Program-made: the position numbers and the translations under genes
In this document: in pieces, positions 2,089-36,010 of the stretch
Numbering within the stretch: position 1 is the stretch's first letter
How the letters are laid out: the number at the start of each line of letters is the position of its first letter
Notes under the pieces: model-generated
What the model saw: only the letters and a program-made list of their open reading frames with translations
Databases searched by the model: none
What the model was told of the DNA's origin: nothing
Source: Eledone cirrhosa
Taxonomy: Eukaryota
Direction: 5' to 3'
Length of the DNA stretch: 64,000 nt
Assembly (NCBI GenBank): GCA_964016885.1
Contig: OZ024740.1
Span: 61,070,001-61,134,000, forward strand

Positions 2089-2859
2089 CTATGATTGTAC
2101 ATCTATATGTGTTTTCATGTAATAACATAACAGTGAATTTCCACACATTTCACAGTGATATGGTTTATCACTGAGATGAGTTTTTACATGTTCTTTTAGA
2201 TGGGAATTTTGAGAAAAGTCTTTACCACATATTTCACAGTGAAAAGGTTTTTCTCCAGTATGTATTTTAATGTGTTCTTTTAAATGGGAATTTCGAGAAA
2301 AATCCTTTCCACAGATTTCACATTGAAAAGGTTTCTCTCCTGTGTGTATTTTTATGTGTTCTTTAAGATAGGAATTCTGGGAAAAATCTTTGCTACATAT
2401 TTCACAATGATATGGTTTTTCTCCTGTATGTGTTTTAATATGTTCTTTGAGGTGGGAATTTCGAGCAAATTCTCTTTCACATATCTCACAATGGAAAGGT
2501 TTCTCACCAGTGTGGATTCTAATATGTCTTTTTAAAGTTGAATTATCAACAAAATCTTTACCACATATATCACAGTGGAATGGTCTTTCTCCAGTGTGGG
2601 TCCTTATGTGACGGCTTAATAAAGAGTTTCTGGAGAATTCTTTCCTACATAACTCACACTGGAAAGGCTTCTCACCAGCATGTGTTCTTATGTGTTTCCT
2701 CAGATAAGAATTTAAAGCAAAATGTTTTCCACAAAGCTCACAACCAAAAGCTTTCTTTACAACATGTGTTTTTAAATGCATTCTTAAATCCCTTTTCAAA
2801 GTGAAATTTTTACCACAGATTTCACAATGAAATGGTCTTAGAACCAAATTTTGTTGCAT
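2089..2859 (-). CDS. Tandem C2H2 zinc-finger protein, 256 aa, 8 complete fingers plus a degenerate ninth
   Basis: Repeated CxxC-x12-HxxxH units joined by TGEKPF/Y linkers; polypyrimidine tract and AG acceptor at 2988-2987 upstream of the ATG (exon starts at 2986). Confidence 0.93.
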   Translation of the reverse strand: MQQNLVLRPFHCEICGKNFTLKRDLRMHLKTHVVKKAFGCELCGKHFALNSYLRKHIRTHAGEKPFQCELCRKEFSRNSLLSRHIRTHTGERPFHCDICGKDFVDNSTLKRHIRIHTGEKPFHCEICEREFARNSHLKEHIKTHTGEKPYHCEICSKDFSQNSYLKEHIKIHTGEKPFQCEICGKDFSRNSHLKEHIKIHTGEKPFHCEICGKDFSQNSHLKEHVKTHLSDKPYHCEMCGNSLLCYYMKTHIDVQS

Positions 2860-3630
2860 CTTGATTATAGAAGAAAGCTTTTTTTTTAAAAGTTTCTTCA
2901 GTTACAAGTGTCAGTAATTTCAAAAACACTACGAGCAAGTCATCAGCAAGCATTTGTATGAACTGTGTAATCTCCAATTTCAAAGTCTAAAAAAATAAAG
3001 AAATCATTTTAAATGTTAGCATCAAAATTTTCATTCAATTTTACAGAAAAACATACAAGCAAATTACTTCTAAATTATGATTGATCAGGCCCTTTATATA
3101 GTATAAAACTGAGGTGTTTTGTAAGTATAGTTTGATGCATGTAACTAATTCTATATATAGAAGATATGAATAAGTTGCTATGAATCAGTCAAAATTGTAA
3201 TCTTTTCAGATATATAGAATTAGTAATAATTATCAGCAAAAATGTTATCTAAAACAGATTGGGAAAAAATATTCTTCATGATTTACTATAGTTTACTCAG
3301 AATAAAACTATTTAATTGAATATCACTTTTTACTATTATCTATAGAAGTTTACTTAAGTTTTATGTGCAGTACAGATGCTCAAATGAATCAAAGATAAGT
3401 CCTATTGGGCTGAAGTGGTGAGAGCTGATCTCAAATCACTGAGACTCACAGAGATGACAAAAGAATGCGGTGAGTGGAGAGATGCTGTGCTGAAAATAAC
3501 CCATCCAATCCATGCAAGGGTGGAAAAACAGATGTAAAGAAGATAATGATGATGATGATGATTTGTGTTTTGGAATCAGTTACAAATGTCTGTCTTAGTA
3601 AGAAAACATTATTATGGTGCTATAATTATA

Positions 3631-3840: not shown

Positions 3841-5230
3841 ATTTAATATGGTGAAAAAGATTCCTGTGTGAGAGAAAGATACTGGTATAGTAACATGGAA
3901 GTGAGCAGAAAAATTGTGTTGTACAATGCTAGAGAAAAAGTTATAACATATTGAAATGAAAGCCAATAGATGAGTTTTTAGCAGTTAATAACAGAAGGAT
4001 GTTTTAATGTAGTAACAAAGTTGTTAGAAGAAATAATGTAATTGTTATAACGCCACGAGTAATCAGTTTGGTAGAAAGATGTTTGGCAGTAAGGGTGCTT
4101 ACGGATATATCCCATTCTGGACAAAATCAACCAGTGAGACATCCTGTTAGATAGGTGAGCTATTCTTTCCTCCCTTGTACCTCTTCCATTCGAGGTTGAT
4201 AAAAAAGTAGAAGTCAAGTACTGGAGTCAATTCTCCCTCTATATCTCTTTCACACTTCAATTCTTCCACTCTCTATCCTACTCTGGAAGAAATCTGCTGT
4301 ATTCAAGCCTGGAGAGGAGATGGGCTCTGCTAGGTTTTAAAAAATGCCCTATAAATGCTGTATGTCTATATAGTGCCCCCATGACTCCCTCACGAGATAC
4401 GGGACCATGCATGCATCACAAGATAATAAGTTATTGAATTCCTTTGACTAAGAACATATCCAGTTGAATACAATATCACCAGTATATTATAGATATTTAT
4501 TTTATTATGTCCAAAGAGATGAAAGCATGTTGACAGTGGTAAGATTTAAACTCAGAATATAGATGTATGATACTTTATATTATTCTGTAATGCATCAAAT
4601 CTAACACAATTATTTCACAACTCACCCTTAGATAAATTTACTATACATCCTTAGAGAAACTGAATATTGATTGGTTGAAAGGAGGAAATGTTAATCCATA
4701 GCCTGATAAGCTGTCCTTCAGTCTACTACAATTATAAATGGCTAAGAGTTTTCCATGGTTGATATGACTATTTTAAAAAAGATGGAAGCTAATAAATTAG
4801 AATGACAGTGTGGTATGTAAAGATCTGCAGGGAATTTGACGTACCAAAACATTTTGATTGTTATGATAGTGAAACTAGTGAGTTCTTGGGAGCAGACACT
4901 GTTTTAGTAGTGATAAAAGTAACAAAAGCTAGATCACAGCATATGAGAAGGCTGGATTTATGGACAACACAACTATGATATAAATTAGGACACAACATGA
5001 AAATATATAGTAAGTTACAGTATCACAGACCTGTAAAATATGTCCAGCAGGGCAATTCTTATATTACTCTTGCTCATATGTTCCAGCCATAGTTGTAATT
5101 TTTTTGTGCTAGATACCCTTTCTAGTGCCAACCACTTTTGAGGGTGTACTGGGTGCACCAGCACTACCACTTTACAGAGTGTATGTAGTGTGTGCAGTTT
5201 ATTGAAACTATTATATTGATAACTATTATA

Positions 5231-5308
5231 TCTCCTGGACAGATTAGTGATTAATTTCGCCCTGAGTGTGTTTGTAACAGATAATCCTCGGGCATCATCA
5301 GGGAGAGA
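5231..5308 (-). ncRNA. Degenerate hammerhead ribozyme (inverted copy)
   Basis: Reverse complement of 5627-5708, but CAGA is deleted from stem III and the G closing stem I is changed to C. Confidence 0.65.
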
Positions 5309-5626
5309 ATTTGATTAAATGTGACAAACACCTAATGCTTACAGGCACATAAAAGTGAAAATTTCACCTCATGTGTTGCAAGTCAAAAGTTATAATGCTC
5401 AGTATTTATACTTTGAGCTTGTTAATTGCAGGGTTTCAGTATGAGTTATTAACTCTACCTTTCATTTATATTTCGGCTCCCTTTCTAGGTGAGCTTATAA
5501 GTTGTGTGTATTGGACTGTTATTTCTGGCCAATCCACTCACACCACTTTTGACTAGCAACGCATGAGGTGAAATTTTCACTTTTATGTGCCTGTAAGCAT
5601 TAGGTGTTTGTCACATTTAATCAGAT

Positions 5627-5708
5627 TCTCTCGCTGATGATGCCCGAGGATTATCTGTTACAAACACACTCAGGGCGAAACAGATTAATCACTAATCTGT
5701 CCAGGAGA
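5627..5708 (+). ncRNA. Type I hammerhead ribozyme
   Basis: CUGAUGA 5634-5640; stem II GCCC/GGGC; GAAA 5677-5680; 8-bp stem III ACAGAUUA/UAAUCUGU; GUC cleavage triplet 5699-5701; stem I UCUCUCG/CAGGAGA with one mismatch. Confidence 0.8.
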
Positions 5709-6379
5709 TATAATAGTTATCGAGGCGGTCTGTATATATTTTTACCTTTCTGTCTGTTTCATGGTTAAATATTTCAAACAAATGTGGTTCTTTAACCCTC
5801 ATAATATTAGACACACGATTTACTGTGTTTATTACTGCATATATTATTATAATGCTCAGTATTTATACTTTGAGCTTGTTAATTACAGGGTTTCAGTATG
5901 AGTTATTAACTCTACCTTTCATTTATAAAAATAAATACATAGATATAGGCATGGCTATGTGGCACAGGCATTTTGCAACCACATAGTTTCGGGTTCAGTT
6001 ATACAACATGGCACTCAGGGCAAATGTTTTCTAATATAGCTTCAAGTTGACCAATGCCTTGTGAAGGAAATTTGGTAGGCAGAAACTATGTGGAAGCCCA
6101 TTGTGTATATTTATGAATATATGTGTGAATGCATGTACATATATCTGTTTGTGAATATTCACTGCCTTGTAATAAAAAAGTTTGACAAAATAAGAACTTC
6201 CAAGAAAGAGTCACAAGCACATTGGGAAAGTCATGCTGCAAATAAAACCAAAATATAAAAATATCTGTTTCAACAAATTTCACATCAACAATCTTGCAAA
6301 ACAAATACAAAAATGAAATTTTATAAGTACTGTTACCACCAATTATTAATCCTCATTGTCATTGTTGCCATCATCATTA

Positions 6380-6710: not shown

Positions 6711-8356
6711 TTCTTATTCCTGAGAGGGTCGTGGGGGAAGACTCCTTAAACACTCCCTCCAGCGTGTCCTGTCAGAAGCAACCATCTCCATCTAATCCAG
6801 CTGGATCCCCAAGCTTGACCAGCCAAGCTCATTGATGTAATCTAACCATCTTGCTTGGAGTTTACCTCTGGGTCTCTTGCTGGTTGGTTTTGCCCGTAAA
6901 ATCTGTCCAGCGATTCTTTCCTGAGACATTCTAACCACATTCTAACAAAGGAGATGACAAAGATAAAAAAACCAAGTGGAGAGATGCTGTATTGGAGAAG
7001 ACCTATCTAATCCATATGAGCATGGAAGAAAAGAAACACGTTAGAAAAACAGATATGTTACAGTATAATAATCCATATTGCACTTTTATCACTGATCAGC
7101 ATGTTTTATTTTTCTACTCTGTGTAAACCATGTTCTCTTAGTTAGATTACAATAGATTAATTAGATCCACTCCACAAATATTAAGACTACTTGTAGATGT
7201 TTAACCCTGACTCACTCGATTATTCTTCTGGCAGTTAAGATCTTTCCTACAATAAACTGGTTTTTCCGATATATACCTTAATTTCTACATATATAGAGCT
7301 CAGCAACAATTGCTTGTAGAATATTAATGCTATCGCTATAAGGGTGATCCATCTGTAATTTTTAGCCAAGCCTAACTCACATTTCTCAGGAAATGGGGGA
7401 ATACAAACTTCAGTCCACTTTTCAATTGGGTTTTGATTGCATACATCATTATAAAAGGAGCATCTGACCAAATAAATAATTTACAGCAATGTTTTGCAAT
7501 TACTGATGTCATTAGAGAGAGACATATGCTTTTTGCAGGACATTGCTGGAGAGCTAAGCAAGAAGTCATTAGTGATGTACTCCTATGAGCATCATAACAT
7601 GGATATGCACAGGTCAGCTGTTCAGGAAAAACTTTCCTTAAGAAGCTTTGTATTGATATGTGATGTTACCCTGCTGATCTCCAGAATGTTATGCAGGATC
7701 AAGATGGTTGATATGATAACAAATATGAGAAAGCTTGACAGGTGATGATGAATTAGATCCACACAATCTTTCTACCTACAAAACCTTCCACAATTTATTT
7801 CACAATAATAAACATTTTTTTTTTTTCCATGTTATTTCTTTCCCAAATTATTTTCAAACTTGAGATTGTCTTTGAAACATTTGGATACAATTTTCCAATA
7901 TAATGACAACAGTCAATTAACCCTTTCGTTAGTGTTCTTCTAAGACACTGCTTATGATTTTCAAATAATTTTGAAAATAATCAAAAGTTTGGAGAGATTG
8001 AGTAATATAACTTACTTCTTATTATTAACTCTTTACATCCTGTAATGTTTTAGTAGAAAATATTTACATCTAAATTCAAATGTTTATAGTGTCTTTATGA
8101 ATGGACAGGTCATTGTGAACAGTATCAGAATGAAGACTTCAATATTTGATGGGATACAGTCATAGTACTATTTTATATTTTTCAGAAATGTCTTGCAAAC
8201 AGGGTTGAATTAAACACATGCTTAGGGCATCAAGAGAAGAAGGACACTATTTTATTCAAATTAAATGTATTTGTCATTCTCCAAAATGCAGACTATATGT
8301 ATATATGGTGCGAGGGATGATATATACACACACACATACACACATACATATATATA

Positions 8357-8620
8357 TCATCATCATCGTTTAACGTCATCTTCCACGCTAAAATGGGTTG
8401 GACGGATTTGTCTCACTTGAGGCAAGATTGGTTGGGTGACCATGTCTTGCTCATACAGAACTGTTTCTGGCAGGTTTTTTACAGTTGGATGCCCTTCCTA
8501 ACACCCACCACATTTACAGTGTGGAATGGGAGCCTTTTTACCGTGTCTCCTACACGACCACTATACAGTGTGGACTGGGTGCTTTTTGTTGTGTCACCTA
8601 CATGACCACTTTACAGTGGA
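8357..8620 (-). mobile_element. SINE copy with (GAT)n tail; one of many copies in the window
   Basis: Shared motif ggatgcccttcctaacacc and catcatcatc tail; related copies near 9618, 10412, 36786, 41960, 42300, 52817 and 53303. Confidence 0.7.
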
Positions 8621-9869
8621 CGGAAGTAGGAGGATGGAATGGGTGGGGTGTATATTGGGTTAAGAGGTGCCTACTGACTGTATATATATATATATACTCT
8701 TTGAAAGGATTTAATCTAACCCCACTTGCTAATGTGGTTTCATATGGTACTTGATGCTAAGAATTAAGCTAGTGTTTGGAGCAAAATTTAACAAAAGTTC
8801 TTACATAAAATTATGATGGATGGTTTTTTGATAAATATCATATAAAGATTATAACATAATTCTAAATACTGTATGTCAGATAGAAAGAAACAAAACAGAG
8901 GATGGTCACAGCTAGAATGATTGTGATTCTGTCTGTTCAGTCATGGATAAAACTAGTGCTAAACAACAATTGGCAATTCTCATCCACTTGATGCTATGCA
9001 GAATAGTATTAATAAGTAGCCCAATGAATCCTTATGACTTATGAAAGCAGTAACACTGTGCGCGTGTGCGTGTGTGCGTGTGCGCGCGCGTGTGTGTGTG
9101 TGTTTGCATGTACAAACACACATGTTGTACAAACACACATGTACTTTTTCACCTTCAGCATTTCTCTCTTGGTTATAACACTTTCTACAAGTCAAACAAC
9201 ACAGGACACATAATTATACTGGGAGTCATTAAGTTATCACATTTCACTGGAACTGGTTATAAAGTGAGATATGAAGTAAAAAGAAAGTCATTTCCCTTCA
9301 GCCAGAGGAAGTATAACAATTGCTAAGGGAAATGCTGCTGCTGCTGAAGGTGGTCTTCATAATTATGATAGTAGTAGTAGTAGCAGTGATGAACATCATG
9401 TTGTTAGTGATAATAATGGTGAAAATAGTGATGGCGTTAGCAGCAGTAATGATTATGATGTTGATATTTATGAATACATTAAGTGGCATTAAGAATCAGG
9501 GAGTGTATTGGATGAGAGTAGACACCAATACACACATCTCTCTCTCTCTCTCCATATATATATATTCAAAATAGGGCGAAAGCTTCTAATTCAAATTATA
9601 TATATATATATATATATATCATCATCATCATCATTTAATATCTGCTTTCCCAACTAGCAAGAGTTGGACAGGTCTACATAGACCAAATCGGTACTGAAGT
9701 GGGGCTACTGACCTCCCAGACAGGCCGAGGGGTCTGTATCCTACTTACGTACAGTCATATCCAGTACAGAGAAACGTTGTGTCTTTTGACACAAACTGAA
9801 GGGTCCTCTTAACCCCTTCTTTGGCAAGCTTTCTACAGCTGGATGCCCTCCCTAACACACATATATATA

Positions 9870-10400
9870 TGATGGCTGTAACTCAATTTTGAGTAATGCC
9901 ATCACTTGATACTTAAATATGAGTGTCACAGATGTGGCTTTTTAGTTCTGCTCGGGACTTGCCTGTGGCCAGCAATACCATGCATCACAAAAAATGTCAC
10001 ATATCAAGCAATGCCTGTGCTTGAAGCTTTTTTAGGTGAGGAAGGCTTTGCACGAGGCCAATACCACTCTCTGAACATCAAATGCATTTACCCAAAAGAA
10101 GAACTGATTTACATCATTCGATGCAAATGAAGTCACAGGTTTTATATCAGAGTGACCTTCTCCTAGAGAGATTTCTCAATGAAGACTAGGGGTCTCTCGC
10201 ACCACAAAAAAAAGAAGCTTTATTGGATGGCCGTTGACTCTCCTGAATTCCTCCACCCGCCGACGGGTTTTGTTTTTCATCCCGCAGGGTGTCCAAAATG
10301 ACCCTCCTCACCAAGCAAGCTTGGTGGGGTTGCTAGTTTAGTCGCCAATGACCCAACCATGCACAGGTTGTACTGGGTTACACGTTACCAGTAGTGCTGG
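9870..10400 (-). mobile_element. Older copy of the ~550-600 bp non-coding repeat also at 16485 and 17406
   Basis: Colinear similarity (aagcaatgcctgtgc..gaagcttt; ccctcctcaccaag...tttagtcgccaa). Confidence 0.7.
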
Positions 10401-11168
10401 TATACATATATATCATCATCATTCTCACCATTTAACGTCCACTTTTCCATGGTGGCATGGGTTAGACAAGTTATCCTGTTGTGAGCAATACTTGGTCAGG
10501 TGACCATGTCTTGCTCATACAGAACTGATTTTGGCTTGGTTTCTACAGCTGAATGCCCTTTCTAGTGCCAACCTCATTTACAGTGAGTAATAGGTGCTTT
10601 TTGTCATGACACCTATACTACCATTTTACAGTGAGGACAGGTTACTCTTTTTCTATGTTGCCATCATGACCACTTTACAGTGTGGGCTGGAGCCTCCACT
10701 GGATGTATACTTCAGTTTGGGGGATGTATGGGAGTGGGTGGGGTGGTACATGCTATATATATGCTTCAGTTATGGCCTGTGCTTGTGGGAATTCGGGTCT
10801 TCTGTATTACTGCATATATATATATATATAAATTGAATTAGAAGCTATCGCTTTATTCTAACTGCAGAAAATAGTATAATGTCAGGGCATATAACCCACA
10901 ATAATGGAAAACAATGGGTATCAGCATAGGTGTGAATTCATTTTCCATGTGTTTTGACTAGATACACAAGAGCTTTCCTCCCGTGAAAAATATATTTTGT
11001 TTTCTATTTCTTTTAGTTCTTATTCTTATCAACCTTTCTATTTCTTCATCAATCTTTTAACCTATCTTCCAATGAAGGACTAACATCCAAAATGTTAAGA
11101 CTCAATAACAAGCATTAAACTAAGATATATCATCATTGTACTGTATTGCTCTCCTGTGTTATTTTCTG

Positions 11169-11226
<58 letters not shown>

Positions 11227-13394
11227 TGCAGACATGGCTTAGTGGTAAAGAAGTTCACTTTACAGTCATGAGGCCCTGTGTTTGGTCACACTGCATGGCA
11301 TCTTCAACAAGAGCCTTTATACATAACCTCAGGTTGACCCAGACCTTTTGAGTGAAATAGAGAACCAGTAGGGAAGCCTGTCACCCTTTTGTGTTTGTTT
11401 TTCATGAGAGCATGGGTTGGGCAGGTTGTCACAACAGAAGACTACATCATGCCCATATGTTTCATTTTAGTATGGTTTCTATGGCTGGATGCTCTATATA
11501 CATATCAAAACCTCACCAACACCAATGTCATTGTTCCTGCTCCTCTCACCTTGTTTGTACCTAAACTTATTCAACTGGATTTTTTCCATTTATTTTCAAC
11601 ATCTACTTTCTTCACCTGTGACCTGACCTGGTCTTGCAACTAGCTTTAATCATACAGTACTTCTTCCCAACTCACCCCTCCAACCCTTTCATTTTCTCAT
11701 TTACATTCTTACTGTCTATAGTGATAACACACACTTTTGATCATGCAGAACATGTGTTCGTAACTTAGATTTCATTATTTGTGATGGATTACATACACCT
11801 TAGCTGTTGGATTTAACTACAAGCAGTATCTTACATCATCCTTATTCAAGATGACTGGAAAGAGGCTGTCATGTGACAGTAACGTGAATAGGAGTGATAA
11901 AGGGATCTCATTGGATGTTAAGCTTATTGTTTGACAAACCTTTGCTATGGGAAAAAAAGACAAAACAGTAAAGCCTGCAACGTGGGAACATTACACTAAA
12001 GATAAAATTAGTTTAAGTGACTTCACAGCTTTTTGTTAACTGTTCAGATATTATTTTTTCATAGATTTCATGATGTGTAATGATTCCTGAGAGTATGGAT
12101 TGACATCAGACAGTGATTTAAGTGAATGTTAAAAATTTGTAAGATGATTTGTAGGAAAAGAAGGAGAAAAATATTTCACTGAACTGTACCAAGATATGAT
12201 GCACTGTACATTTTCTTCACCCCTCAAGTAAATGATGATGATGATAAACTATAAGCAGAATACAGTAACTCCCATTGCAGCAGCTCCTTTCATCATCATC
12301 ATTTTATGTCTTCTTATCCATGCTTGTATAGTTTGGGTGGGTCTTTTCCAGCACATCATCCCTCCACTCATTACGTTCCTTTATCACCTCCTTTGAAAGC
12401 TTCAGGGTTTTGAGATCAGCTCTCACCATCTCCACCCATCTCTACAGTAGTTTCCTTTCACTGTAATTTCTTGACACTTCTTCAACCAGCGATCATCATC
12501 CATATGCATCACATGTCCTATCAGCACAGTTTTCTCTCTTGTATTTTAAAATCAGTGTTCACAACATATCTTCCTAGGTCTACTTCTTCTACAAGTCCCA
12601 TTGAAATTTCTCTATCATTATCATTAGTCCATTTTTTCATGTTGGAATAGGTTAATGTTTTGGACAGGTTGTCACAGACCAAATCAATACTTAATCAGAG
12701 CCATTATCCTCCCAGACGGGTTGAGAGCAACCTTTCATTTACATATGTTCTAGGTTGAGCATAGTTTCTGTGGTTTGATGCCCTTCTTATCACCAACAGA
12801 GGGTACTAGCTGCATTTTATCAACACCAGGGAGGTTGCCATGTCCTTGACACAACCAAAGTTCTTGACTTGATTGAAGAGCACTCTCTACCTTAGGTTAT
12901 TGTTACTAGCTGAATGTCACCCACTTCACAGAATACACTGAGTGCATTTTATAGTGGCATCAGCGCATGTCCCAAGGCAGGTGTGTCAGGATTGAGAACA
13001 GCAGGAAAGGGAATTAAGATGGATTTCAAGTATGATGTCATAGATGTATGACAATTGTATGACAATTGGGGTAGGATGAGGGTATGAGTAATATGGGAGA
13101 GAGTGGTGGGGTACAGCGATAATAAAAATAGCTATTAAAGAATATGAAATAGGCCAAAAGTCACATATGCTATATTGTTGTGACACAGAGAATGTGTTAA
13201 ATAGTGGCAAGGAGAAGAGAAATAAGGGTGTAGCAGATACTGTAGCAAAGATGAAGGAAACAGTGGATTAAGTAAGGGTAAATTGGCATCTTTCTTTTAT
13301 ATGCATAGGTGAGTCATTTCTAGTACCACATGTCACCAGTTATCACAGTCCTTTGTTATCTTTGTCATAAGGTTCAGCTTCCTAAGATCAGTCT

Positions 13395-13580
13395 TGGATT
13401 GGCAGTATCGGTAGAGGGTCGGACGCCATGTTTTGCAGCATAGAGTTACGGACCTTACGGTCTGAGTTCAAATGCCACCGAGGTTAACTTTCTTTCATCC
13501 TTACGGGGTCGATAAAATAAAGTACCAGTAATACACTGGGATAATTGCTGGCCTTGTGCCAAAGATAGAAACAATTATAT
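13395..13580 (+). mobile_element. tRNA-derived SINE
   Basis: B-box-like gagttcaaat and body ctttcatccttacggggtcgataaaataaagtaccag, also near 31800, 34200(-), 47900(-) and 48600. Confidence 0.7.
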
Positions 13581-14270
13581 CATCTCATGTCTTCCTAGGT
13601 CTACCACTTCAAAGATCCCATCCACTGAGATCACCCTGGATTTCTATTACCAGTTGTCATTTTCCATATATATCACATGTCCATACCAGCACAGTCTTCT
13701 CCCTTGCATGCTGCATCTGATTCCTTATATCACACCACGTTCTTCTCATAGCTTGATTATGCTATGCTGTTTATGCACACTAATATTACATATCCACTAA
13801 AGTATACTCAATTTCTTTCAAGCCTTCACAGGACTTCTGCAGTCAAGTCTCATGAAATACTGCTATGTAACATCGCAGTTCACATGCAAAAATCATAGTC
13901 TACCCTTCACATCGAGAGAGAAGCCCTTTGTTATCAACAGAGTTATTAGCTTCCTAAACTTCTTATAGCCCATTCTTACATTAACTACTACATTTTCAAA
14001 GCACCCTAACCAACTGCTGATTAGGTCATCTCAGTAACACAAGTTGTGAACAACTTCTAGGGAGCCCCATGGGCAATTGAAGGAATCTATTTCACGTGCT
14101 TTTAGTGCTTACTTCTCCTGTGTATCTGTCGCATATAAAGTCTACCTTTAGTCCCATTACATCTTTTCTGCATCTATATTTTACGCTGTGTGCACTTTAT
14201 AGAAATTCTGCCCATCCCTTTTCAGCCTATCGAGCAAGGTCATATCTCTGGTAGTATTAGATGGCATCAA
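13580..14270 (-). mobile_element. Degenerate RTE LINE 3' coding fragment
   Basis: Similar to the region encoding [11 protein letters not shown] and RLRWYGHV in the RTE copies at 53.5 kb and 63.2 kb. Confidence 0.6.
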
Positions 14271-16031
14271 CATGATTTTACGTCCGCTTTCCCATGCTTA
14301 TATATATAGAGAGAGAACATTACATGAAGTGTTGAAGAAGATAACAGAAAATCCCCTATCTGATCTTGATAGCACTCCTAGATATTTGTTATTTTACTCG
14401 CTTTACATTCCTTTAACAGGGAGGAGTAGTTATCTTAAGGAAAAAATCATTCATTTACAAATTCCTAAGTATTATTTGAAATGAGTTTCAGCATCTAAGC
14501 CAGATAATGTACATAAAATAATTATTTTCATTTCGCACCCATCCCTATCTGCGGCAAATTATTACTTTATTGAAACTAACATCGCTCAAATATATTTGGT
14601 ATTGAGAGAAGTATGCTGGAGGAGATTACCACTCACTCTTACCAAAAATAGTATTTTCTTTTGACTAAACACAAGGTATTTTACGGAAGAGACAAGATGA
14701 AAATTGGTGGCGTTCATACAATTATACACTAAAAAATTAAGTTTATCCAAACATTTCGACGAAAGAAACTTTAAACTACTTAAATATTATAATAAAGTCC
14801 CACATTTATTTGACCACGATACTTGATTATTTCAATAAATACCTAACAGAGCAACAAGGCAAGTGAATCGAAATACCTTTAAACATGTATTGAAACATTC
14901 CGTGATGATCCGTAATGTAATAAAATAAAAATACAAAAAATATATTAGTTTCATTGGCATATTTTCTCTAATAACGATTTCTAACATTATCTGTATATCA
15001 CAATGAATGGGTATATTTTTATTTGATTTTGTTTAATTCTTAAACACAAACATTATCGCTGGAACTGCGAGATATGTCCCAAGTCACATTGGTCATCGTC
15101 CAAAGCCCGACTTCTTAATGCAGCACATCTAAACCCCTTACACACAAAATGAAGGCTCCCTCCACATCTATCCTTACATCTACATCAACTGGAATCAATT
15201 AACTTCGACGACTAGATTGATGGAAAGATTAATAAATAACACCATAAACAACGTTAGCATCTAAAAAAACAAAACAACAATAGATGAAATCTGCCAAAGT
15301 TTGACAACTGTTTTGTTTTGAAAATATGTTTCGCACATAATATACATTGGTTTTGAAAGATTGTTTGTACAAAAGGTATTACAATCTTGGTTTCCCGGTA
15401 AGAAATTTATTGGGAAACAGAAATTGAAAAATTCCGACAAGATTTTTTAAATAACAAGTTTTAAAATATCGATTTTTGTAGAAAGAAATCGCGATAAAAA
15501 AAATTCATGGTTCCGAAGTGGGGGTTCATTTAAGCTTCTGCTTGGATTTACAAAATGTTGAATGTGGACAAATTCGAGGGTGGAGCCCAGATAAAGTTAT
15601 CGACTCGGGAAATCTATACCAACTCATATTAGATTTTTTTAAAAAAGCCCACGTAAAATAATATTTATTTTAACAACATAAACCATGTCTAAAAAAATGA
15701 CAAATCTTGTTAGTTATGTTAAAAACATTAGAAATTCTACGGAGGTTGTCAAAAGAAAAATGATTATTTCAACTGTCACAAGTTGTGAACGGTAAAGGAA
15801 CACAGAACGATAGAAACCAAAACCTCACACTGGATAAGACGAATATTGTAATAAATCGTTCACGTAACAGACATCTTCATAGAAACAAAGCGTGACTCAG
15901 ACGCAGGGAATTCCATACCATTTAATCGGAGATGTCATATCTTTCCAAGTTTTGTAGAGAAAATGTCCAATAATAAGTAAACATATCTTAATATACAAAG
16001 CATTATTATAATCAGAATACTGTAACCTTAC

Positions 16032-16130
16032 CTTAGCGTGACGATAATTTTCCGCAGATACATTGAAGTTAGCGGGGAAACTTGCGATAAATAATTACAA
16101 TAGTTGTGGAAGGCGCTATGGCTAAGTATG
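16032..16130 (-). other. Putative untranslated first exon / promoter of the zinc-finger gene
   Basis: Strong donor AAG|GTAAGG at 16032/16031 within a locally CpG-retaining, repeat-poor region (about 14.5-16.2 kb). The link to the 2986 acceptor and the 5' end are inferred. Confidence 0.4.
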
Positions 16131-16484
16131 GATAGCTAATGGTGACATAAACTATCAGCAAACATTTCAAATAGAAAGTGCTTTCTTTAAAATATTCCAA
16201 GATTATTATCAAATATATATATTTGTTTCAGTGGGAATAATTATCTAATTAAATTCCTCACATTTCATTAGAACCAAAAAACAAAAACAAAAAAAAAAAC
16301 ACTGAAAATTATATTTTGAATAAATTTTTCATAATTAAAAGTATTTAAAGAAAATAGCAGATTTTTAGTCAAAAGATTCCACGCATACATATACACATGC
16401 ATACTCACACTCATACTCACATACACATGCATACATACACACATACATACATGCATACATACATACAAACATACATACAAACAA

Positions 16485-17040
16485 ACATGGTGGCTGCCAA
16501 CTCGTTTTCGAGTACGGCCACTACTTTATATCCATGTAGGAGAACCCCCACCGATGCGCTGAACGAGTGTGACTCTCTAGTCCAGCCAGCAACTTGAAAA
16601 CTCTGGTACAAACACTACACTTGTGACAATTATTGACACATAGTGCTGGGCCCATGGTACCCTGTGACGACAAGTGCAGAGAGATCTCCAGATATAAAGC
16701 AATGCCTGTGCCATGAAGCTTTTATAGTGAGCAAAGGCACTGCACAAAGCCAGTCGCACTCTCTTAACCAAGATGATATTTACCAAAAAGAAGGACAAGT
16801 CAACATCATTGGATACCATCAGGGTTGCAGGTGTTATATCAGAGTTTTCCTTCTCCTAGAATTCTGCCTTGACAAAGGCTAAGGGGTCATCTCTCCCGGT
16901 GATTTTGGATGGCCATTGACTCTTAAGAGCTCCTTTGCCTTTTGACAGGTTTTGTTTTTAGTCCTGCAGGATGTCCAAAGTCACCCTCCTCACCAAGAAA
17001 CCTTGGTGGGTTGCCAGTTTAGTCGCCAACGACCCGACCA
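16485..17040 (-). mobile_element. ~550-bp non-coding repeat, copy 1 of a tandem pair
   Basis: Nearly identical to 17406-17959; flanked by (TACA)n. Confidence 0.8.
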
Positions 17041-19774: not shown

Positions 19775-20382
19775 CTTATGAAGCATTTCACCCCAGCACA
19801 TAAATATAGTAAAATTTTAATAGAAATACCATTAAAATTTCTTACTCTACGACTCCTAACCTTGCACATAACATCACAGCTTCAAATTTAGCTAAATTAC
19901 CTAGCCGTAGGAACACGTGCAACCCTGTAGCTAGTACTAACTGTAATTGTAGGAATAGGGTTGACTACCCCCTATCCGGGAAATGCTTCTCTAGTAACAT
20001 TGTCTACAAATGTAAGGTTGAAACACCCACGTCCCGTAGGGCCTACATAGGGTTAACCGCCAATAGATTCAAGCAGTGTTTTTACGTGCATACCCATTCT
20101 TTTCCTTACCCTTTAAGAATGAATATGACGTCACTTTCAGCTTATATCTGGAGTCTAAAAGACAACCACACCCAATATAAGTTACACTGGGAGATCCTAG
20201 CTAAAGCTAGATCGTATAACGGAAATAAAAGACCATGTGACCTCTGCGCCGCTGAGGCCCTGGAAATACTCTACGCCAAAGACCACATCTTAAACAAAAA
20301 ATCTGAGGCAATTTCGGCTTGTAAACATAAATTGCACAAAACTTTCCTGTATTACAGCCCCACATTATACCCTAACGGATAG
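19775..20382 (+). mobile_element. Penelope-like element C-terminal region with GIY-YIG endonuclease (frameshifted)
   Basis: KHFTPAHKYSKI/NRNTIKISYS..PN, then CNCRN...PLSGKC..NIVYKC...AYIGLT..RFK...LSAYIWSLK...CDLC..E...LNKKSE...CKH. Confidence 0.8.
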
Positions 20383-21274
20383 TACGAACTATACGCGGAT
20401 ATTTTATGTCTTCATGTGGTAGCTAAGTATATGTTACGTTTATACCATTACTTATTTGTATAGGTAAGTATATATTACCTGTATGTTTTGTGAAGGTATG
20501 TATACTTTCTCGTACATATATTTGCTTGTATATGTTATGGCGTATATATTATACATACTGGTACATATGCATGAGGTTACGTGTATACGTGAGTTTCGCG
20601 TCTGTGTGAGTATGCGGGTTCGTACGTATGTAGGGTGTATGTATATGTGTACTTTGTGTTTTGGTTGACATACGTCTGCGAACATATGTGTTTTTACATG
20701 TAGGTATGTGTGCGCACGCGATATATACGTATTTATTTATATACGTTTATTTAATTATATGTATACACGCACACACATATATATATATATTTTTTTATAT
20801 ATAATTTTATGTGTATTTGGTGTATACGTTCGTATGTGTGCGGGTACAGGCGTTGCGTGGGTTTTTTTGTGTACGTGCTTGTATTTACCCTGGCGAGTGT
20901 TTTCGCGTATGCTTGTGTATGTACGTATATGGATGCGGGCATGTATATATTTAATTTTTGTTGATTTCAATTACCTCTGTAATTTATTTACATTATTCTT
21001 AACTCTGAAGCCGAGAATAATTCGGTTTGCTAAATAGAATTTTAGTCTACGACTTCAGTTATACCATTTACGTGGTTTTGTCTTTGCGTGCAATTGTTCT
21101 CAATATTCCACATAATGTTGTATTATCTTCGTTTTTTCCGTTCATTGACAGAGAACGTCTCCATGAATCACCTAATAGAATATTAGTTTACGACTTCATT
21201 TATGCCATAAACGTGTTTTTGTCTTTGCGTGTAATTGTTTTTAAAAGATTACATTTATATATATATATAAATAT

Positions 21275-22852: not shown

Positions 22853-22854
<2 letters not shown>

Positions 22855-24434
22855 CCTTAGCAACCCCACTGAAGATGCTCTTCAGAAGCTCCTTGGCTAG
22901 CGGTGTACTACCCAGGGAGCTGAAAGAAGGCACAATATGCCCTATCCATAAAGGAGGTAGTAGAGCGGAGGCCAAGAACTATAGGCCAGTCTCCCTGACG
23001 TCGCATATCAGTAAGGTCATGGAGCGAGTCGTCAGAAAGAAACTAATCACTTTCCTCGAGGAAAATGACCGCCTGACTAGCACGCAACATGGCTTCCGCC
23101 CAGGAAGAAGCTGCCTTACACAGCTGCTACATCACTACGACTGGGTACTGAGACAACTACTAGACAGCTCACATGTGGACGTGATATATCTTGACTTTGC
23201 GAAGGCCTTTGACAAGGTCGACCACGGAATGATGTGTCACAAACTACACGGACTCGGCATAACTGGAAAAGTAGGTGAGTGGCTGCATGGCTTCCTAAGG
23301 GACAGAAGCCAGGCAGTCGCAGCAAATGGGGCCCTCTCGAGGGAAACACCAATAACAAGTGGGGTGCCCCAGGGGACAGTCCTGGGACCACTACTGTTTT
23401 TGGTGGCTCTCTCGGACATGCCCTCTGTGGTGCATGCAACAACATCCCTCACTAGCTATGCTGATGACACTAAGGTAGCACAGGCAATCAAAAACCCGGC
23501 TGACGCTGCCCTTTTACAGCAGGATCTGGATGCCATATACAAATGGGCGGAAGAAAACAACAAGCAGTTTAATGCTGGCAAATTCCAAGTCCTACAATAC
23601 AAACCTGCAAACACAAATATAGTGGAACACAGCTACACAGGACCAGGTGGGACCGATATCCCCGTGTCAAAATCGATACGAGACCTGGGCATAGACATGA
23701 GCGATGATGCATCTTTTTCTTCACACATCATGAAGGTGGCAACAATGTGCAGACGACTCGCTGGCCGGATCTTGAGGACTTTCCGGACAAGAGATCGAGA
23801 CACCATGTTGACACTGTGGAGGACTTTTGTCCTAAGCCGCCTGGACTACTGCTCCCAGTTGTGGTCACCCCATAGTGTCAGACTAACCACGGAGCTTGAG
23901 GCAATCCAGCGAAGCTACACCAAGAGGATTGCCAAGATGAGGGAGACAAGCTACTGGGAGTGGCTAAAGGAACTGAACCTCTACTCCTTGGAGCGAAGAC
24001 GGGAGAGATACGCAGTGATCTACATGTGGAAAATCCTGGAGGGACTAGCACCAAACTTTGGCATTGGGAGCTGGACCAACCGTCGAACAGGACGTCACTG
24101 TGTGGTGCCAAAGGTCCCGTCTTCCACATCTAGAATAAGGAGCAGGTATTGCAATAGCCTGGGATTCAAGGGCCCTCAACTCTTCAACAGGCTGCCGAGC
24201 CGATCTGAGAGACTTGCATGACGTGGAGGTGGATGTCTTTAAGAAACATCTCGACACCTTGTTATCCAGGATCCCGGATGAGCCCACAGCAAGACACGAG
24301 GGAAACCTAAGGGCAGCAGCAACGAACTCCCTCTTACACCAGTGGCCAACCTATACAGGCTGGAGATAAAATGCGTAGCAACAAGGGCGGTGCCCCAGCA
24401 TGGCCTCAGCCGGATGGCTGAAACAGGTAAAAGA

Positions 24435-24660: not shown

Positions 24661-25422
24661 CTAAGGTGTGTGCTGCTCGGGTCAGCCTTTAGTCCCCCCC
24701 CAAAAAAAAACATACTTATTGCTCAGTGACTCCATCAAAGTTATATATGTATATACACACTTCAACAGCATTCTAATAAATATTGCCTCTACAGGTAATC
24801 AAAGTGTGTATATATTTTGGGGGAACATCCTCTATATTTTAACAAGTCTGTTTACAATTATAATGTTATGAGAGGTTATTGGAGATGTTTCCCGGTACTC
24901 CTTGCGACGCTGCTGTATTTGCTCTGTTGGTGGCTCGGTTGTCCATCCCATCCTTTATATTTTCTTTAATATTGCAACATTAAAGGAATATATCCTTCTG
25001 AAAGAATTACGAGCATTTTACAATGTTATTTAAGCATTTGTAATGTTATTTATGTATATATTTAAAACATATTTGCTAAAAAAAAGAAATTAAAAACATG
25101 ATTATATATAGTCAATAAAAAATCAGTATATTAAAAAAAAAAAGATGTTATGCTGCAGCATTAAAAGAACGCTGATAGCCTATAGCAGACCCAAAAGTGC
25201 CGTCCGGGGTGGACCGCTGTCCTCACCCGCTCTAGCTACGCTACTGGTTGGTCTAATGGTAGTATAACTGCCCAGCAAGCATGAAGGTTTCGGTTCAAGT
25301 CCCACAGCTGCTAATTTCTATTTTTTTCATTAAGGAGTTTATATGCTGTATTATTTAGATTATTTACTCTAACTTTCTCAAAGGGGTCAAAATCTCGTTA
25401 GAAAGGGCATCCATCTGTAGAA

Positions 25423-25692
25423 TGTGGTTAGAAAAAGCTATCTCAATTACCGCTTTTCATAGGTGCCGCTAAATCCCATTGCTGGTTTCTCCTCTTCCAC
25501 GTGCGTCCAACTCATTAACACCGGGAGCTGCCAAAACTCGCGTCCACACCGTTCCTGGTCACCACTAGAGAGAAGCCGATCTGCTGGCCCTTCCGGTCGA
25601 GCACCCTTCCGGCCAAGCACCCTTCCGGTCAAGCACTCTTCCGGTCGAGCACTCCCCAGCTTCCGGCCACCGCACGCCACACCATACCCACA
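25423..25692 (-). repeat. 3' LTR (270 bp)
   Basis: TGTGG...CCACA termini; matches 29364-29617. Confidence 0.92.
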
Positions 25693-28600
25693 CGCCCCCC
25701 TGATCTCAAGGATCAATTTCCCTCTCGTCCTTCTGCATATGAAAGTCTGCTGTCCAGGTTGGTGGTTTGCGACTTCTTTGCGATCTCCGCAGTGTTGGGG
25801 CAGCACTTTGGGTTTCCTCTCCCTCGGAGTCCGTTAACACAGTGATTCTATGGACATCCAGGACATGACGTGGTACTCCGTCCACGGACACATTGTTCTG
25901 GGAATTTACGGCCGTCACCGTTCCCCTTCCCCATTGAGATGTGCAACGTGCATCTGGGGCTTAACCCAGACTTCTTCGCCCACCTGCACGAATGCACTCT
26001 CTCTCCCCACTGACCGTTGTGGTGGCATGCACGGGTGCCGCCACTCGTATCTGAATACTGCTCTGTGTGGCACCGATTCCTCGACTTATCCCACCCGAGG
26101 GGACATGTTGTACCAGAACACTGCCTCCATTGGTGAGATATGGCCCCGCTCGCTATTGCCTTGATCGTCCGGTAGTGTCGCTCCACAATTCCATTCCCGC
26201 TCGGCCTGTGCGCTGCTCTGAAGAAACGGTCCATCTTCCATCCATCGAGCATCTCCCTCAGCGCCTCCGAGCAGAACGCTGCGCTGTTGTCCATCAACAG
26301 TTCGTCCACAGGGCCCCGCTCCAAGAACACCTCTCTCAACGTGATTTCCTCGGCCGTTCCAGTCTTCATCTCCCTCCATATCGCCATCCGTCCCGGTCCA
26401 CAGTCGACCATCGAGAGGTACGTTCCCTGTCGGTAGTGCGTTACATCCACCGCCAATCGCTTCCAGTCGCGATCCACCGGGAGGCTTCCCGTTTCGTGCA
26501 CACCCGGGGCGGGATCAATGGACTGACATCGGACGCAGCCTCTAACCACCCTTTGAACACTGTCTGTTAACGTCCGAGTCGATTCTCCTGGCTAGGAACA
26601 GGCTCCTATCCAGTCCCATGTGGTACATGTCATGCAACCGTTTCAGATCCGACACACGGCAGCTATCTCATCCTCTACCTCCTCCGGCGCTTCCATCCAG
26701 GCTTTCTTCACCCTAGTTAAGACGTCCGCCCTATTTTTCTATGAGGGCACGAAAACTACGCTCAGCCTCAGGTCGAACTCGGTGGCCAGCTCTCCTAAAG
26801 TTCCCAGGCGGCGCTTTATCAGCATCTCCGCTGCCCCTCTCGTTCGCACTCTCTTCTCACTGGTGAGCACTGATCTCACCCATCCGAGTACAGTAGCCGA
26901 GTCAGTGCGTATCTCGGTGGTGTGCAGTCCCCACCCCAAGGCGAGGTTCACACCTCTCAACACCGGTGTCCAGCTCGATGTGGTTGCAGTCGTCCTTCTT
27001 CCTAAGCCAGGCTGCATCCTCGACCTCAACACCTCCTATCTCCAACGTGACACCCAGCGCTATGCTGCTGGCATCGCACCATACGGTCCCGCTCTGCGAT
27101 TTGGGAACGTACCAGCGTCCCCGCACTGGGTCGTCGGCCTTCACCCTCCCCACGATCTCCTGCACCATGACCACCGTCCTCTCTCCCACTCTGTCACTCC
27201 AAGTCACCCCTCCCGCTCGTCTCTTGACATAGCTGCATGCCGTCCGGAGCCACCCAGCAATCGGGTAGTGACCCACCAACTTTCCACACACCGAGAAAAG
27301 CTCCCGCCTACTCATACTTGGGCCCAGTTCTGGAACTTCATTTCCCCTCTGGAATACCAAGACGCCCGTCATGTCTCGCTGTAGCCTAAGTCCCAGCGCG
27401 GCTCCTCCCTCCAACGCTTCTGGCGGCTTCGCAGCCAGTCCATACCCCTGTAAATGGCTCGTGACCTCCGCCGCCGACACCACAGACTCGTCCACTAGGA
27501 TGTCGTCAATGTAGGTGTTAGTGGCCCACTTCATCTTGTCGGCCTTTCCCAGAATGGTCTTGAGGACCGCCGCCATGATCTTCGGTGTGGGGCTCAGCCC
27601 GAAACCGAGCCTGGTCAGGCAATATGTCCGGCCCTTATACCTGACCAGCTGATACTGCCAGAGCTTCTCATCTATATGCAATTGCAAGTATGCCGACTTT
27701 AGATCTACGATTGCTGAACCCCCGTCATGCGTCTCCACCCACGCAGGGTTTCCCCACAGACACCCGTGACCTCGCCACCCGTGTTGCATGACACGTGCTC
27801 GTTCAGCTCCCGAAAGTCCAGCACCGGCCTCACCTTGTTCTTCGTGGGTTGTGCAACCGCCATTAACGGCAATACTCCGTACTTCACCTCCTCTTTCCAG
27901 GGAAGCAGTATGCCCTCCTCAATCCATCTCTCTACCTCTCGCTCGAACTCGCTCCCAATGTTTCCCTTCAATGTGTGTTGATAGCAGCCCACTTTGGTCT
28001 TCAGTATTGGTGGTTCTCCCTTCCAGTACCACTCAACAACCCATCGCTGCCCATCGAACACGGCCTTGAAGTCTTTGTCCTGCACAGTGTAAGCGGGGTA
28101 TTTCTCCTCGTGGGCCTTCTGGTTCTCTTGTCGCGTACTCAGCGCATACCGATGCAGCGCCGCCAAACGACACACCGACGTTGTTCACTGTGACGCTTCC
28201 TAGACGGCCAATTGCGTCCATGCCCATAACCACACCGATCCCATCCACCACGTTGTCAACTACGATAGCAGAAAGCCTTATTTTCCTTCCCCGTACCACT
28301 ATCTCCACCTCGTTGCGACCTCGGCATTCAATTTTCCTGCTGTCGACTGCCCTTACGCTGCTCTTCCCTCTCCACCTCTGAGCCACCCCCGCGGTCACCA
28401 GTGTCGTCGTACAGCCCGTGTCCACGAGGGCTCGCTGTGGCTTTCCCCTCACGAAGACTTCCACCACGGGCAGCGCCTCTACTCGTAAGGGGAAACTACC
28501 GGCGCAGTAGTTCTCCTTGGATCGTTTCCCTCGTCGCAGTTAGTAGCGATGTGGCCTGGTCGCTTACACCGGTAGCATATTATTTCCGGCCTTGACTCTC

Positions 28601-29363
28601 TACAGTCTCTAGCCATGTGCGGGCCCTGGCACCTAAAACAGCGACCTCTAAACGTTCACGGGCGACCGCGTTCCGTGGTTGCCTCCCTTTCACCATTTCG
28701 CTGCCAGCTGTCTTGAGCCTCTGTAGTTGCTATCGCCGCGACACTCTTCTTGGCATCTTCTGCTATGATCCGGGCTTGTTCCACCAGTGAACACATTTCC
28801 ATTTCTTTGTAACCCGGGACTTGCTGCAGTTTCACCGCTATGTCGTCTGGAAATCCATTTATGAACGCCAACCGCACCGTGCGTTCGCATTCCACCTGAT
28901 ATCCAGCCAACATGGCCAATCGCCGTATTTCCGCTGCGAAAATGTCAACGCGTTCACCGTTCCATCTAATTCTTGCCAGCTTAGCAAAAGCGGCTAACGG
29001 TCCCTCTGCGAACGCTTCCATCATGCGCCTCGCAATCTTTTACGCATCTCTTTGGCTGTGTTTATCCAACTCAAGGAAGAGTACCAACGCGTCCCTCTCG
29101 AGCTACAGTGCCATGAGGCCAGCCACATCTATCTTCTGTAAGCTTGCGACCAGCCGGACTTTTCACAGCCAAGCGACAACATCGCCTTCACCGGTAAATG
29201 CCCTAATCGCTTCGCTCGTTCGTAGTCTCGTCGCCATATCCTAATTTGTCTTGCGGTACGTGATAAAAAAAAAAACAACAGACTCCTCTCTGTTTTTCCA
29301 GTAGCTTTTTTTTTTTTTTTTTTTTTTTTCAATCAGATCTCAGTTTCCAGTGCCGAAATAGCT

Positions 29364-29617
29364 TGTGGTTAGAAAAATCTATCTCACTTACCGCTTTTCA
29401 TAGGCGCCGCTAAATCCCATTGCTGGTTTCTCCTCTTCCACGTGCGTCCAACTCATTAACACCGGGAGCTGCCAAAACTCGCGTCCACACCGTTCCTGGT
29501 CACCACTAGAGAGAGGCCGATCTGCTGGCCCTTCCGGTCGAGCACCCTTCCGGCCAAGCACTCTTCCGGTCGAGCACTCCCCAGCTTCCGGCCACTGCAC
29601 GCCACACCATACCCACA
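29364..29617 (-). repeat. 5' LTR (254 bp)
   Basis: Differs from the 3' LTR by about 5 substitutions and one 16-bp repeat unit. Confidence 0.92.
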
Positions 29618-30006
29618 GAATCAAACCAAAATCAGTTCTGTATGAGCAGGACACGGTCACCTGACCTGGCATTTCTCACGACAGGATAACTCGTCTAACC
29701 TATGCTAGCGTGGAAAAATGGACGTTAAACGGCGATGATGATGATAATACACACGCACACACATCATCATCATCATCATTTCCCCGCAACTGGTGCAGCC
29801 AGTCATTGGGGTGCCACTCTAGACATTTTTGCAATCAGTTGTCGCCATTGGTCTCTATTCTTCGTCATGCGTAGAAGGGTATCTGTGTTGTGATCAGTCA
29901 AGCCTCTAAAGTTGTCGGACCAAGATTTTCTTTGTCTGCCCCTTCTTCACCCTTCCTCGACTGTGCCCTGAAGAATGGTTTTGGAAAAGTTGTGGCAGGA
30001 TATATG

Positions 30007-30222
30007 TGTCGAGACACTGCATCCTTTAAAACTTCCATGCTTCCCGAGATTCGCCAACACTACACTTAATGTTCCCCCTCCATACATATACACACATGTA
30101 TATCTTGACTCATACACTATTCACTTCCCTGACATTTGTATATTATTCTATGTACTATACATGTACCTTTGACGAGTTGTAGTGCACCTGAGCACTTTAC
30201 ACAATAATTTCATTATTATTAT
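30007..30222 (+). mobile_element. 3'-terminal fragment of the CR1-group family found at 49.6-52.8 kb
   Basis: Matches 52651-52819, including gacgagttgtagtgcacctgagcactttacacaataatttc(att)n. Confidence 0.85.
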
Positions 30223-30589
30223 TTTATACCAGGCAAGCTTCTGTCTTTTCACTATCACAAGGAGTGGTTCCTGTCTGCCAGCATGTTTGTGACTTGTTAC
30301 CTAACAAAGCTGTACGGGATGTGTAGCAACCTTCTGAAGCACTTGGTTTGAATGACTGGATTTTTCGTTCCATGTCCAATTCTCACACCCATACAAAAGT
30401 CACCAAGGACTTGTACAGTTTGAGCTTCACTGGAAAACTGATGGAGTTCCATATGACGTTCAGCTTTCCCATAGCAAAAGTGGCCATACAGGGTTACTAA
30501 GTTCTCTAAGAACACATCTTTTAATAGCTCTAACTTTCTTCTAACTTGTTCTAAATATCGTTTCTTTTCAGATAAATGATGACAAACAT

Positions 30590-31255
30590 CAAGCAAATGA
30601 AAAGAACCGGTGTAATAATTGCCTTAAAGACAGAACATAGTGATTCAGAGATTGCTCGCTTCCTGAAAATTGCTTGGTCATTTGTTGTCAAAGTTTGCAA
30701 AAAGCTGGAAGCCGTGGGGGGGGGGGGGGGGTATTATACAGCAGTAACCAAACGTAAAACGCCGTCAATGATTCTAATACCATCAGAACAGCCAGGGTTT
30801 TGAGACCTTGGGTAGAGAAGGAAGACTATACACCTACCAACAAGATTATGCGCCGTTTGACAAGGCCAATCCGACCCAAGGATAAATAAATGAATTACAA
30901 TCTCCACAATCACGTCAGCCCAAACAGCTCTCCAGACCTGAATCCACCGAACTACTACATATGGGGTGTAGTGGAAAAGGAAATGAATGAACTCTCCCAT
31001 AGCACTACAAAATATTTGAAGTTTGCAATAACTAGCACAATGTCTAAAACAGATAGAGATTATGCGATTCGGAGATGTCAATGTTTCAGATCTCGTTTGT
31101 TTTGAAGCTGTCATCAATACTAACGATACTATTGAGTAGATGCGTCAAAGTCTCAAAGTTATTCATACCAATTTTTTCTCAGATAAAGTTCTTTCATGAT
31201 ATGCACCAATTTAATAAGAAACGCATATGTCCTTAAAGAACTAAGCAGCCCTGTA
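30590..31255 (+). mobile_element. Tc1/mariner-superfamily transposon relic, internally deleted
   Basis: HTH-like SDSEIARFLK; SPNSSPDLNPPNYYIWGVVE motif; terminus ...CCCTG-TA. Confidence 0.7.
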
Positions 31256-32610: not shown

Positions 32611-32654
<44 letters not shown>

Positions 32655-34699: not shown

Positions 34700-34868
34700 T
34701 AAGTACTTCAATGACTCAGTTCGAGATAGAACAACACTGAAACCAGCAGCTTGGTTAAGATATGTGGATGATACTCTTCTGACAACACCAAGAGAATGTT
34801 TAAGCTTTTGTAATGAACTCACTACATACATCAATCCTGTTTACTTTGAGGTTAGAGAAACCACAATG

Positions 34869-34870
<2 letters not shown>
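34700..34870 (+). mobile_element. Penelope-like RT fragment
   Basis: KPAAWLRYVDDT...F...L..INP motif. Confidence 0.6.
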
Positions 34871-34899
<29 letters not shown>

Positions 34900-35070
34900 C
34901 ATATATGTGTATAATTGAAACACAAATAAATATATTAAGAATGAAACGGGCAATAAATACATAGACAGTGTATATCTTATATATGCACATGCATGTGTTC
35001 ACACACACACACACACAAACCCAAAGAACAAGAAACCCAGATCAATTATGTTAAAATTTTAAAATTTCTG

Positions 35071-35076
35071 TTTATT
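35071..35076 (-). promoter_or_regulatory. Candidate GNS polyadenylation signal AATAAA
   Basis: About 790 nt after the stop codon, followed by GT/T-rich sequence on the minus strand. Confidence 0.45.
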
Positions 35077-35863: not shown

Positions 35864-36010
35864 CTAGTCCACTTGACAAGAAGGACCAGAACACAAAGAT
35901 AATGTGGCCAAAGTTTGGCTGAGTTGTAACACAATTTTAGGGTCAGCACTCTTGGCAATGTTGGTAATTTCTGCAGCATCCTTCCCAAGGTCATACATTT
36001 CAATGAAATG
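35864..36010 (-). CDS. GNS: GNS last coding exon HFIEMYDL...CSGPSCQVD*
   Basis: AG acceptor; TAG stop at 35866-35864. Confidence 0.9.
   Translation of the reverse strand, partial: HFIEMYDLGKDAAEITNIAKSADPKIVLQLSQTLATLSLCSGPSCQVD

Follow-up and report, generated by a model that had tools for sequence, protein, structure and literature searches.

Between 5218 and 5927 lies a member of a multi-copy repeat family whose 457-nt unit is non-coding and contains a type I hammerhead motif. The repeat is probably a non-autonomous Penelope-like element (PLE) of the non-LTR retrozyme type; a PLE reverse transcriptase (RT) and GIY-YIG endonuclease, acting in trans, would have inserted this copy into a (TA)n tract. 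All positions are those of the window, the 64-kb stretch of Eledone cirrhosa DNA that was analysed. We observed the unit, the ribozyme motif, a multi-copy family, cyclic colinearity in divergent copies and 3' ends beside TA tracts. The features of the locus are collected in Table 1.

Table 1. Features of the element locus, with window positions and strand
Position	Strand	Feature	Basis or remark
5200..5217	.	AT-rich sequence of the left junction; an imperfect 15-nt duplication has its first copy here	Period 15 over 5200-5231
5218..5390	-	Inverted arm, copy of 5545-5721; its hammerhead is broken (stem III lacks 4 nt; a core-adjacent pair is altered)	
5390..5846	+	457-nt non-coding unit	
5604..5622	+	Segment complementary to hammerhead loop II (5649-5667)	16/19 paired, ungapped
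5627..5708	+	Type I hammerhead, stem I to stem I	Motif, descriptor, family variation
5847..5927	+	Unit start repeated over 81 nt; the insertion ends here on its 3' side, as other copies do	
5924..5947	.	Decayed (TA)n tract	19/24 positions in register

The first 81 nt of the unit recur at a spacing of 457 nt with one mismatch (5390-5470 versus 5847-5927), giving a more-than-unit length of 538 nt, or 1.18 units. The initial annotation had started this tandem one base late, at 5391/5848, because T5390 is common to the inverted arm. The inverted 5' arm that it described was confirmed: 5218-5390 aligned to 5545-5721 over 177 columns with 95.5% identity (E 6e-78). The two differ by four substitutions and a 4-nt deletion (5680-5683), which takes away the start of stem III in the inverted copy. 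The reported lack of an ORF also held, as the longest ATG-started frame has 53 codons even when the unit is circularised. No ORF of at least 100 aa is present at the element locus, so the locus is not an autonomous PLE, and there is no coding frame 3' of 5927 or 5470. The unit has 35.4% GC and no further copies in the 64-kb window. The circular fold of the whole unit was better than 60 of 60 shuffles (z -2.9), and this held on either strand.

The decayed (TA)n tract is the probable target site. We found no target-site duplication (TSD) longer than 5 nt, the longest word common to both flanks being 5 nt. At the left junction, the 15-nt duplication extends into the beginning of the inverted arm; slippage or microhomology may account for it. 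Immediately 3' of the TA tract lies a SINE-like repeat (5948-6160, multi-copy at 6017-6100), which we take to be an octopus SINE. Within the unit, 5471-5498 forms a small hairpin that also has an AG/GTGAG splice-donor-like motif; compared by eye in five divergent copies, its stem is kept and its loop is variable.

The ribozyme ascribed to the unit was located as a type I hammerhead motif on the + strand, with its core at 5634-5701. Stem I pairs 5627-5633 with 5702-5708, and stem II pairs 5642-5648 with 5669-5676 (7 bp, one bulge, 20-nt loop). Stem III has 8 bp (5680-5687/5693-5700). The core consists of CUGAUGA (5634-5640) followed by one extra U, and of GAAA (5677-5680); the predicted cut is after C5701, at a GUC site. 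Across family variants the stem III arms are kept while the stem III loop varies, and the G at 5703 that completes stem I is present in 99-100% of family contig depth. The hammerhead of the inverted copy is broken in stem III, leaving a single complete forward motif at the locus. Two consecutive units each with a complete hammerhead, which define an 'active' copy in excerpts of 10.64898/2026.07.22.740005, are absent here, and the locus is a dispersed, monomer-type copy.

To describe the family, we matched public sequences to 5471-6100 at 85% likeness, using three contig runs from one sample and RAD reads (X5) from another individual. The contig runs, of 16-17 million records each, gave 1344, 1296 and 1180 matched contigs, and 929 RAD reads matched; both counts include hits to the flanking SINE. 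Four of the seven sequence runs listed have part of the unit, and none is recorded as RNA. Most matches were less than 95% alike, 947 of the 1344 contigs in the first contig run among them. Summed depth was 7,000-17,000 over the ribozyme and 27,000-46,000 at 5849-5890, values that are not copy numbers, and 2.5-3.9 at the flank (5954-5974). One contig matching the locus exactly had a depth of 17.7. These matches point to a multi-copy, diverged family of roughly hundreds to thousands of copies, in order of magnitude only. The initial annotation had held that a single-copy unit would count against it, and the unit is not single-copy.

Divergent pieces cover the whole cycle: 5527-5620 (8 differences), 5616-5729 (11), 5675-5766 (9), 5740-5849 (12) and 5794-5913 (12). 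The cycle is closed by joints from 5924/5927 back to 5471/5499, also with divergent letters. Therefore, the more-than-unit structure is not private to this locus, and the copies that are colinear round the 457-nt cycle have no room for an ORF. This colinearity was pieced together from short pieces, and among the listed pieces none spans the whole unit; beyond those listed there are a further 83 variant rows, 592 loose ends and 3849 pieces. Among the listed family pieces, a tandem array carrying two ribozymes on one strand did not appear. The multi-copy family and its cyclic colinearity bear out the proposal of a non-autonomous PLE-type element copied for more than one unit.

The initial annotation had raised the question whether the start points of copies are circularly permuted. 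The visible 3' ends of family copies are common near 5927 rather than randomly permuted. Beyond 5927, 11-15 contigs in each contig run carry on in (TA)n register. A different flank follows 5927 in 70 X5 reads, which may all come from one locus. PLE insertions may end in a 30-40 bp tail; here depth falls between 5890 and 5932, although ends cannot be located from contig depth. X5 reads over 5928-5938 were left uncounted, as 90 reads have unrelated sequence before 5913. Pile-ups of X5 read ends at 5881/5884 were considered as element ends and rejected; they lie at an AATT site and would be restriction ends of the RAD library.

Strand-switch joints make up 7 of the 13 joints listed, each at different points and none at the locus's own junction. 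Each is supported by one contig or 3 reads, and the joints at 85% likeness are single contigs or 3-4 reads. In each of the three contig runs, a form with an 88-nt deletion (5730-5819) reached a depth of 224-274, and 4 reads also have it. It would give a unit of about 369 nt and appears to have been amplified.

According to excerpts of the PLE and retrozyme literature, the architecture of the locus matches the published anatomy of these elements, which agrees with the Penelope-like insertion footprint seen by the initial annotation. Excerpts of PMC8557442 describe a partial tandem, an inverted 5' copy and a (TA)n bias in PLEs. We propose that a master locus would be transcribed for more than one unit and that a PLE RT and endonuclease acting in trans would nick a TA tract. 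Target-primed reverse transcription would then begin near 5927, copy 538 nt and stop. A second priming on RNA of the same lineage would add 5721-5545 in the opposite orientation. Both arms have letters absent from most family copies, at 5585, 5613, 5703 and 5721. Therefore, barring later conversion, the arms point to one template lineage, and that lineage would already have had the stem I mismatch.

The template may have been either a ribozyme-made circle or an uncleaved linear tandem transcript. The footprint fits both, and for this insertion we lean slightly towards the linear transcript. On a linear template the two pieces would span 840 nt (1.84 units, with 125 nt missing). On a circular template, priming on the already copied stretch, or a second molecule, would be required. 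A circular template is proposed for more-than-unit PLE copies in excerpts of PMC4209133. For an anole PLE, excerpts of PMC11167929 describe reverse transcription from fixed internal sites with both target strands extended, and report that ribozyme cleavage was unneeded in vitro.

Several observations count against the reading of a trans-copied, non-autonomous PLE. One is that the outer end of the inverted arm lies at 5721 and not at the 3' end of the element, 5927. The family pieces show no tandem array and no full-unit piece, depth is low at 5555-5596 (12-516), and there are odd loose ends. In addition, neither a TSD longer than 5 nt nor a partner PLE was found. Part of this evidence would fit another explanation, in which the repeat is no more than the pLTR (terminal repeat) belonging to an autonomous family of Penelope-like elements, the locus is a 5'-truncated, rearranged insertion, and the 457-nt cycle is a minor deletion derivative. 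The distance of 226 nt between the ribozyme and the 3' end is what a 3' pLTR would show. Depth peaks near that end, with a dip at 5555-5596, and upstream of 5604 and 5627 some of the loose ends do not look like the unit. Most PLE hammerheads are single motifs in truncated copies, according to excerpts of PMC4209133. However, divergent copies are colinear through the depth dip, as seen in the piece 5527-5620 and in loose ends behind 5527 and before 5600 that track the unit when compared by eye. The absence of a coding frame after 5927 or 5470 also argues against a terminal repeat, and copies with the cyclic link would be non-autonomous even given an autonomous parent. We consider the terminal-repeat explanation unlikely. 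In many copies the upstream sequence may differ from that of the unit and could be an autonomous PLE, and an autonomous parent possibly supplies many of the copies.

A local duplication, fold-back inversion or satellite-type unequal exchange acting on an old repeat would need no RNA intermediate. Such DNA-level events would fit the slippage duplication at the left junction and arms that are only about 2% apart (5 substitutions in 254 positions), and satellite-like local amplification of retrozymes is proposed in excerpts of 10.64898/2026.07.22.740005. However, the unit-to-unit links recur in divergent copies, and other copies have a common 3' end at TA tracts and inversions of their own, all of which is typical of target-primed insertion; a purely DNA-level origin is thus improbable in our judgement. 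Chance resemblance or misassembly has been largely refuted and now carries almost no weight. Rfam gave 0 hits in the 64 kb at the gathering threshold, the hammerhead included, and 6 weak unrelated hits but no hammerhead at E up to 10, and the folding z-score of 5615-5725 alone is weak (-0.93). Against this, a generic hammerhead descriptor matched once in the window and in only 1 of 300 dinucleotide-shuffled windows, and the stems are kept amid family variation. An assembly artefact is also hard to reconcile with a contig identical to 5525-5642 and with the substitutions and indel that separate the arms.

The hammerhead of the unit is predicted to be open to blocking by its own upstream sequence. 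Over 5598-5715, a fold with 5604-5622 paired to loop II reached -31.5 kcal/mol, versus -23.7 kcal/mol with the hammerhead stems enforced. Shuffled loops paired equally well with 5604-5622 in 82 of 5000 and 18 of 2000 trials; the pairing was noticed post hoc, so these trials lend it modest support. The family contigs of high depth start exactly at 5604 (three listed pieces), and a common A-to-G change at 5613 preserves a G-U pair with loop II. We predict that 5604-5622 forms a blocking helix or a partial pseudoknot. A shorter pairing of this segment could instead be an activating stem I-II pseudoknot, a structure found in about 40% of the hammerheads examined in excerpts of PMC3088659. Excerpts of PMC7229834 report ribozyme blocking in plant retrozymes and viroids and in some of the mussel circles. 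A bolder reading, which we hold to be doubtful, is that octopods have a circular-RNA retrozyme family of high copy number in which the hammerhead is monomer-competent but is turned off by a conserved antisense helix upstream of it. In that case, the pairing of 5604-5622 with loop II would act as an intrinsic lock by which circles or multimers stay uncut and available for Penelope-type reverse transcription, and it would offer a testable answer to how metazoan retrozyme circles escape self-cutting.

The repeat likely belongs to the class of non-LTR retrozymes and PLE derivatives. The comparisons that follow draw on excerpts of the cited papers. Retrozymes are treated as non-autonomous PLE derivatives linked to PLE pLTRs, with dispersed monomers counted, in 10.64898/2026.07.22.740005, and the class is already described in corals, mussels, axolotl/amphibians and others (PMC7229834, 10.64898/2026.07.22.740005). 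The octopod element resembles the metazoan non-LTR retrozymes of these two papers in its non-coding, low-GC unit, its type I hammerhead, its many copies of dispersed monomer type, and the presence of PLEs in the same genome. Unit length is 350-390 bp in mussels and 51-972 bp in 10.64898/2026.07.22.740005; 457 nt exceeds the 170-400 nt of PMC7229834. The locus has one same-strand ribozyme only, and circles of the octopod element are a prediction. Its stem III of 8 bp makes monomer folding possible, in contrast to the usual 1-2 bp. The self-pairing block predicted here has counterparts in plant retrozymes, viroids and some mussel circles, but not in most metazoan retrozymes (PMC7229834).

The pseudo-LTRs of EN+ PLEs (Neptune, Penelope/Poseidon) and derivatives such as MRC1 share the partial tandem and the inverted adjacent copy (PMC8557442, PMC4209133, PMC3846280, PMC11167929). 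Further features in common are a (TA)n target, a common 3' end and a hammerhead close to that end in which helix II is long and position 9 is followed by an extra nucleotide; in PLEs a TSD is often not discernible. The extra nucleotide (9/10.1) and the long helix II are features of PLE hammerheads in PMC4209133, and non-autonomous pLTR-forming elements are described among PLEs (PMC8557442, PMC3846280). Unlike these pseudo-LTR elements, the octopod element has no RT-EN ORF. Inverted copies of PLEs usually flank the whole unit, whereas the octopod arm matches an internal segment (outer end 5721, element end 5927). The long helix III is like that of fungal and protist PLE hammerheads and not like the metazoan minimal ones. 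Plant LTR retrozymes (PMC4918200) are likewise non-autonomous and hammerhead-bearing, with a ribozyme predicted to be blocked in unit-length RNA. However, they have type III hammerheads, LTRs, PBS/PPT, 4-bp TSDs and more than 55% GC, whereas the octopod element has a type I hammerhead, 35% GC and no TSD that we found.

The octopod family adds to a known class of ribozyme-bearing non-autonomous PLE/retrozyme elements. Among the literature listed by our searches, no title or abstract opening concerned an octopod hammerhead family, which Repbase, Dfam, subscription papers or supplements may already contain. In a short space, the locus records both copying beyond one unit and inversion; alone it changes no model. 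Many copies of the family, taken together, could help to settle whether PLE machinery uses circles or uncleaved linear tandems as its template.

Two Penelope relics had been named in the window as candidate helpers. The GIY-YIG relic stood: 19816-20331 has 45% identity over 172 aa to P0001, a protein with an RT end and a GIY-YIG domain. Pfam gave no family for the relic and only a sub-threshold unrelated hit for P0001. We take both to be PLE-type from their motifs, compared with the Zn finger described in PLEs, and the CxC/CxxxxxxC linker of the relic presumably indicates the Neptune type. The Zn finger (linker) of PLE GIY-YIG proteins is described in excerpts of PMC8557442. The RT relic was not confirmed: at 34689-34868 there is a 60-aa frame with a WLRYVDD RT-like motif that ends at a (GT)n tract, and a protein search brought up one candidate but no hit at E up to 10. 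Comparison of the unit with the flanks of both relics gave no significant sequence in common (best 25 nt, E 0.034), and their role as helpers of the unit was set aside as unsupported. Penelope elements are abundant in coleoid genomes, according to excerpts of PMC8967140.

The GIY-YIG relic belongs to a PLE-type region (19813-21240) that continues 3' into a long stretch of non-coding sequence, where a separate 66-nt direct repeat lies (21033-21098/21174-21239, 88%). By eye, a degenerate CTGAAG-plus-hairpin near 21003-21035 may be a decayed hammerhead. Translations revealed an uninterrupted 945-aa LINE-type endonuclease-RT frame at 49876-52713 (+), other LINE relics at 22854-24221 (+) and 53534-56938 (-), and an LTR-retrotransposon-like region at 25400-29600 with 270-nt direct repeats (25423-25692/29364-29617). 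The window also holds an exon of an N-acetylglucosamine-6-sulfatase-like gene (38828-39037, -), with 89% identity to the Octopus vulgaris protein and 83% to the Argonauta protein, the two named among eight hits, which points to an octopod host. A 270-aa frame with tandem C2H2 zinc fingers (84-nt period) lies 2.3 kb from the element, at 2089-2901 (-).

A metagenome pattern scan for hammerhead-like cores returned seven loci, with likeness to the unit of at most 17-19 nt. None of the seven matched P0001, and by eye their long ORFs are prokaryotic or phage-like in appearance. Three of the cores have the same CUGAUGA-U-GCCC form: L002:1202-1245(-), L003:93-149(-) and L004:833-868(+). These three lie in a prokaryote- or phage-like context, and L002 has 186-nt terminal repeats.
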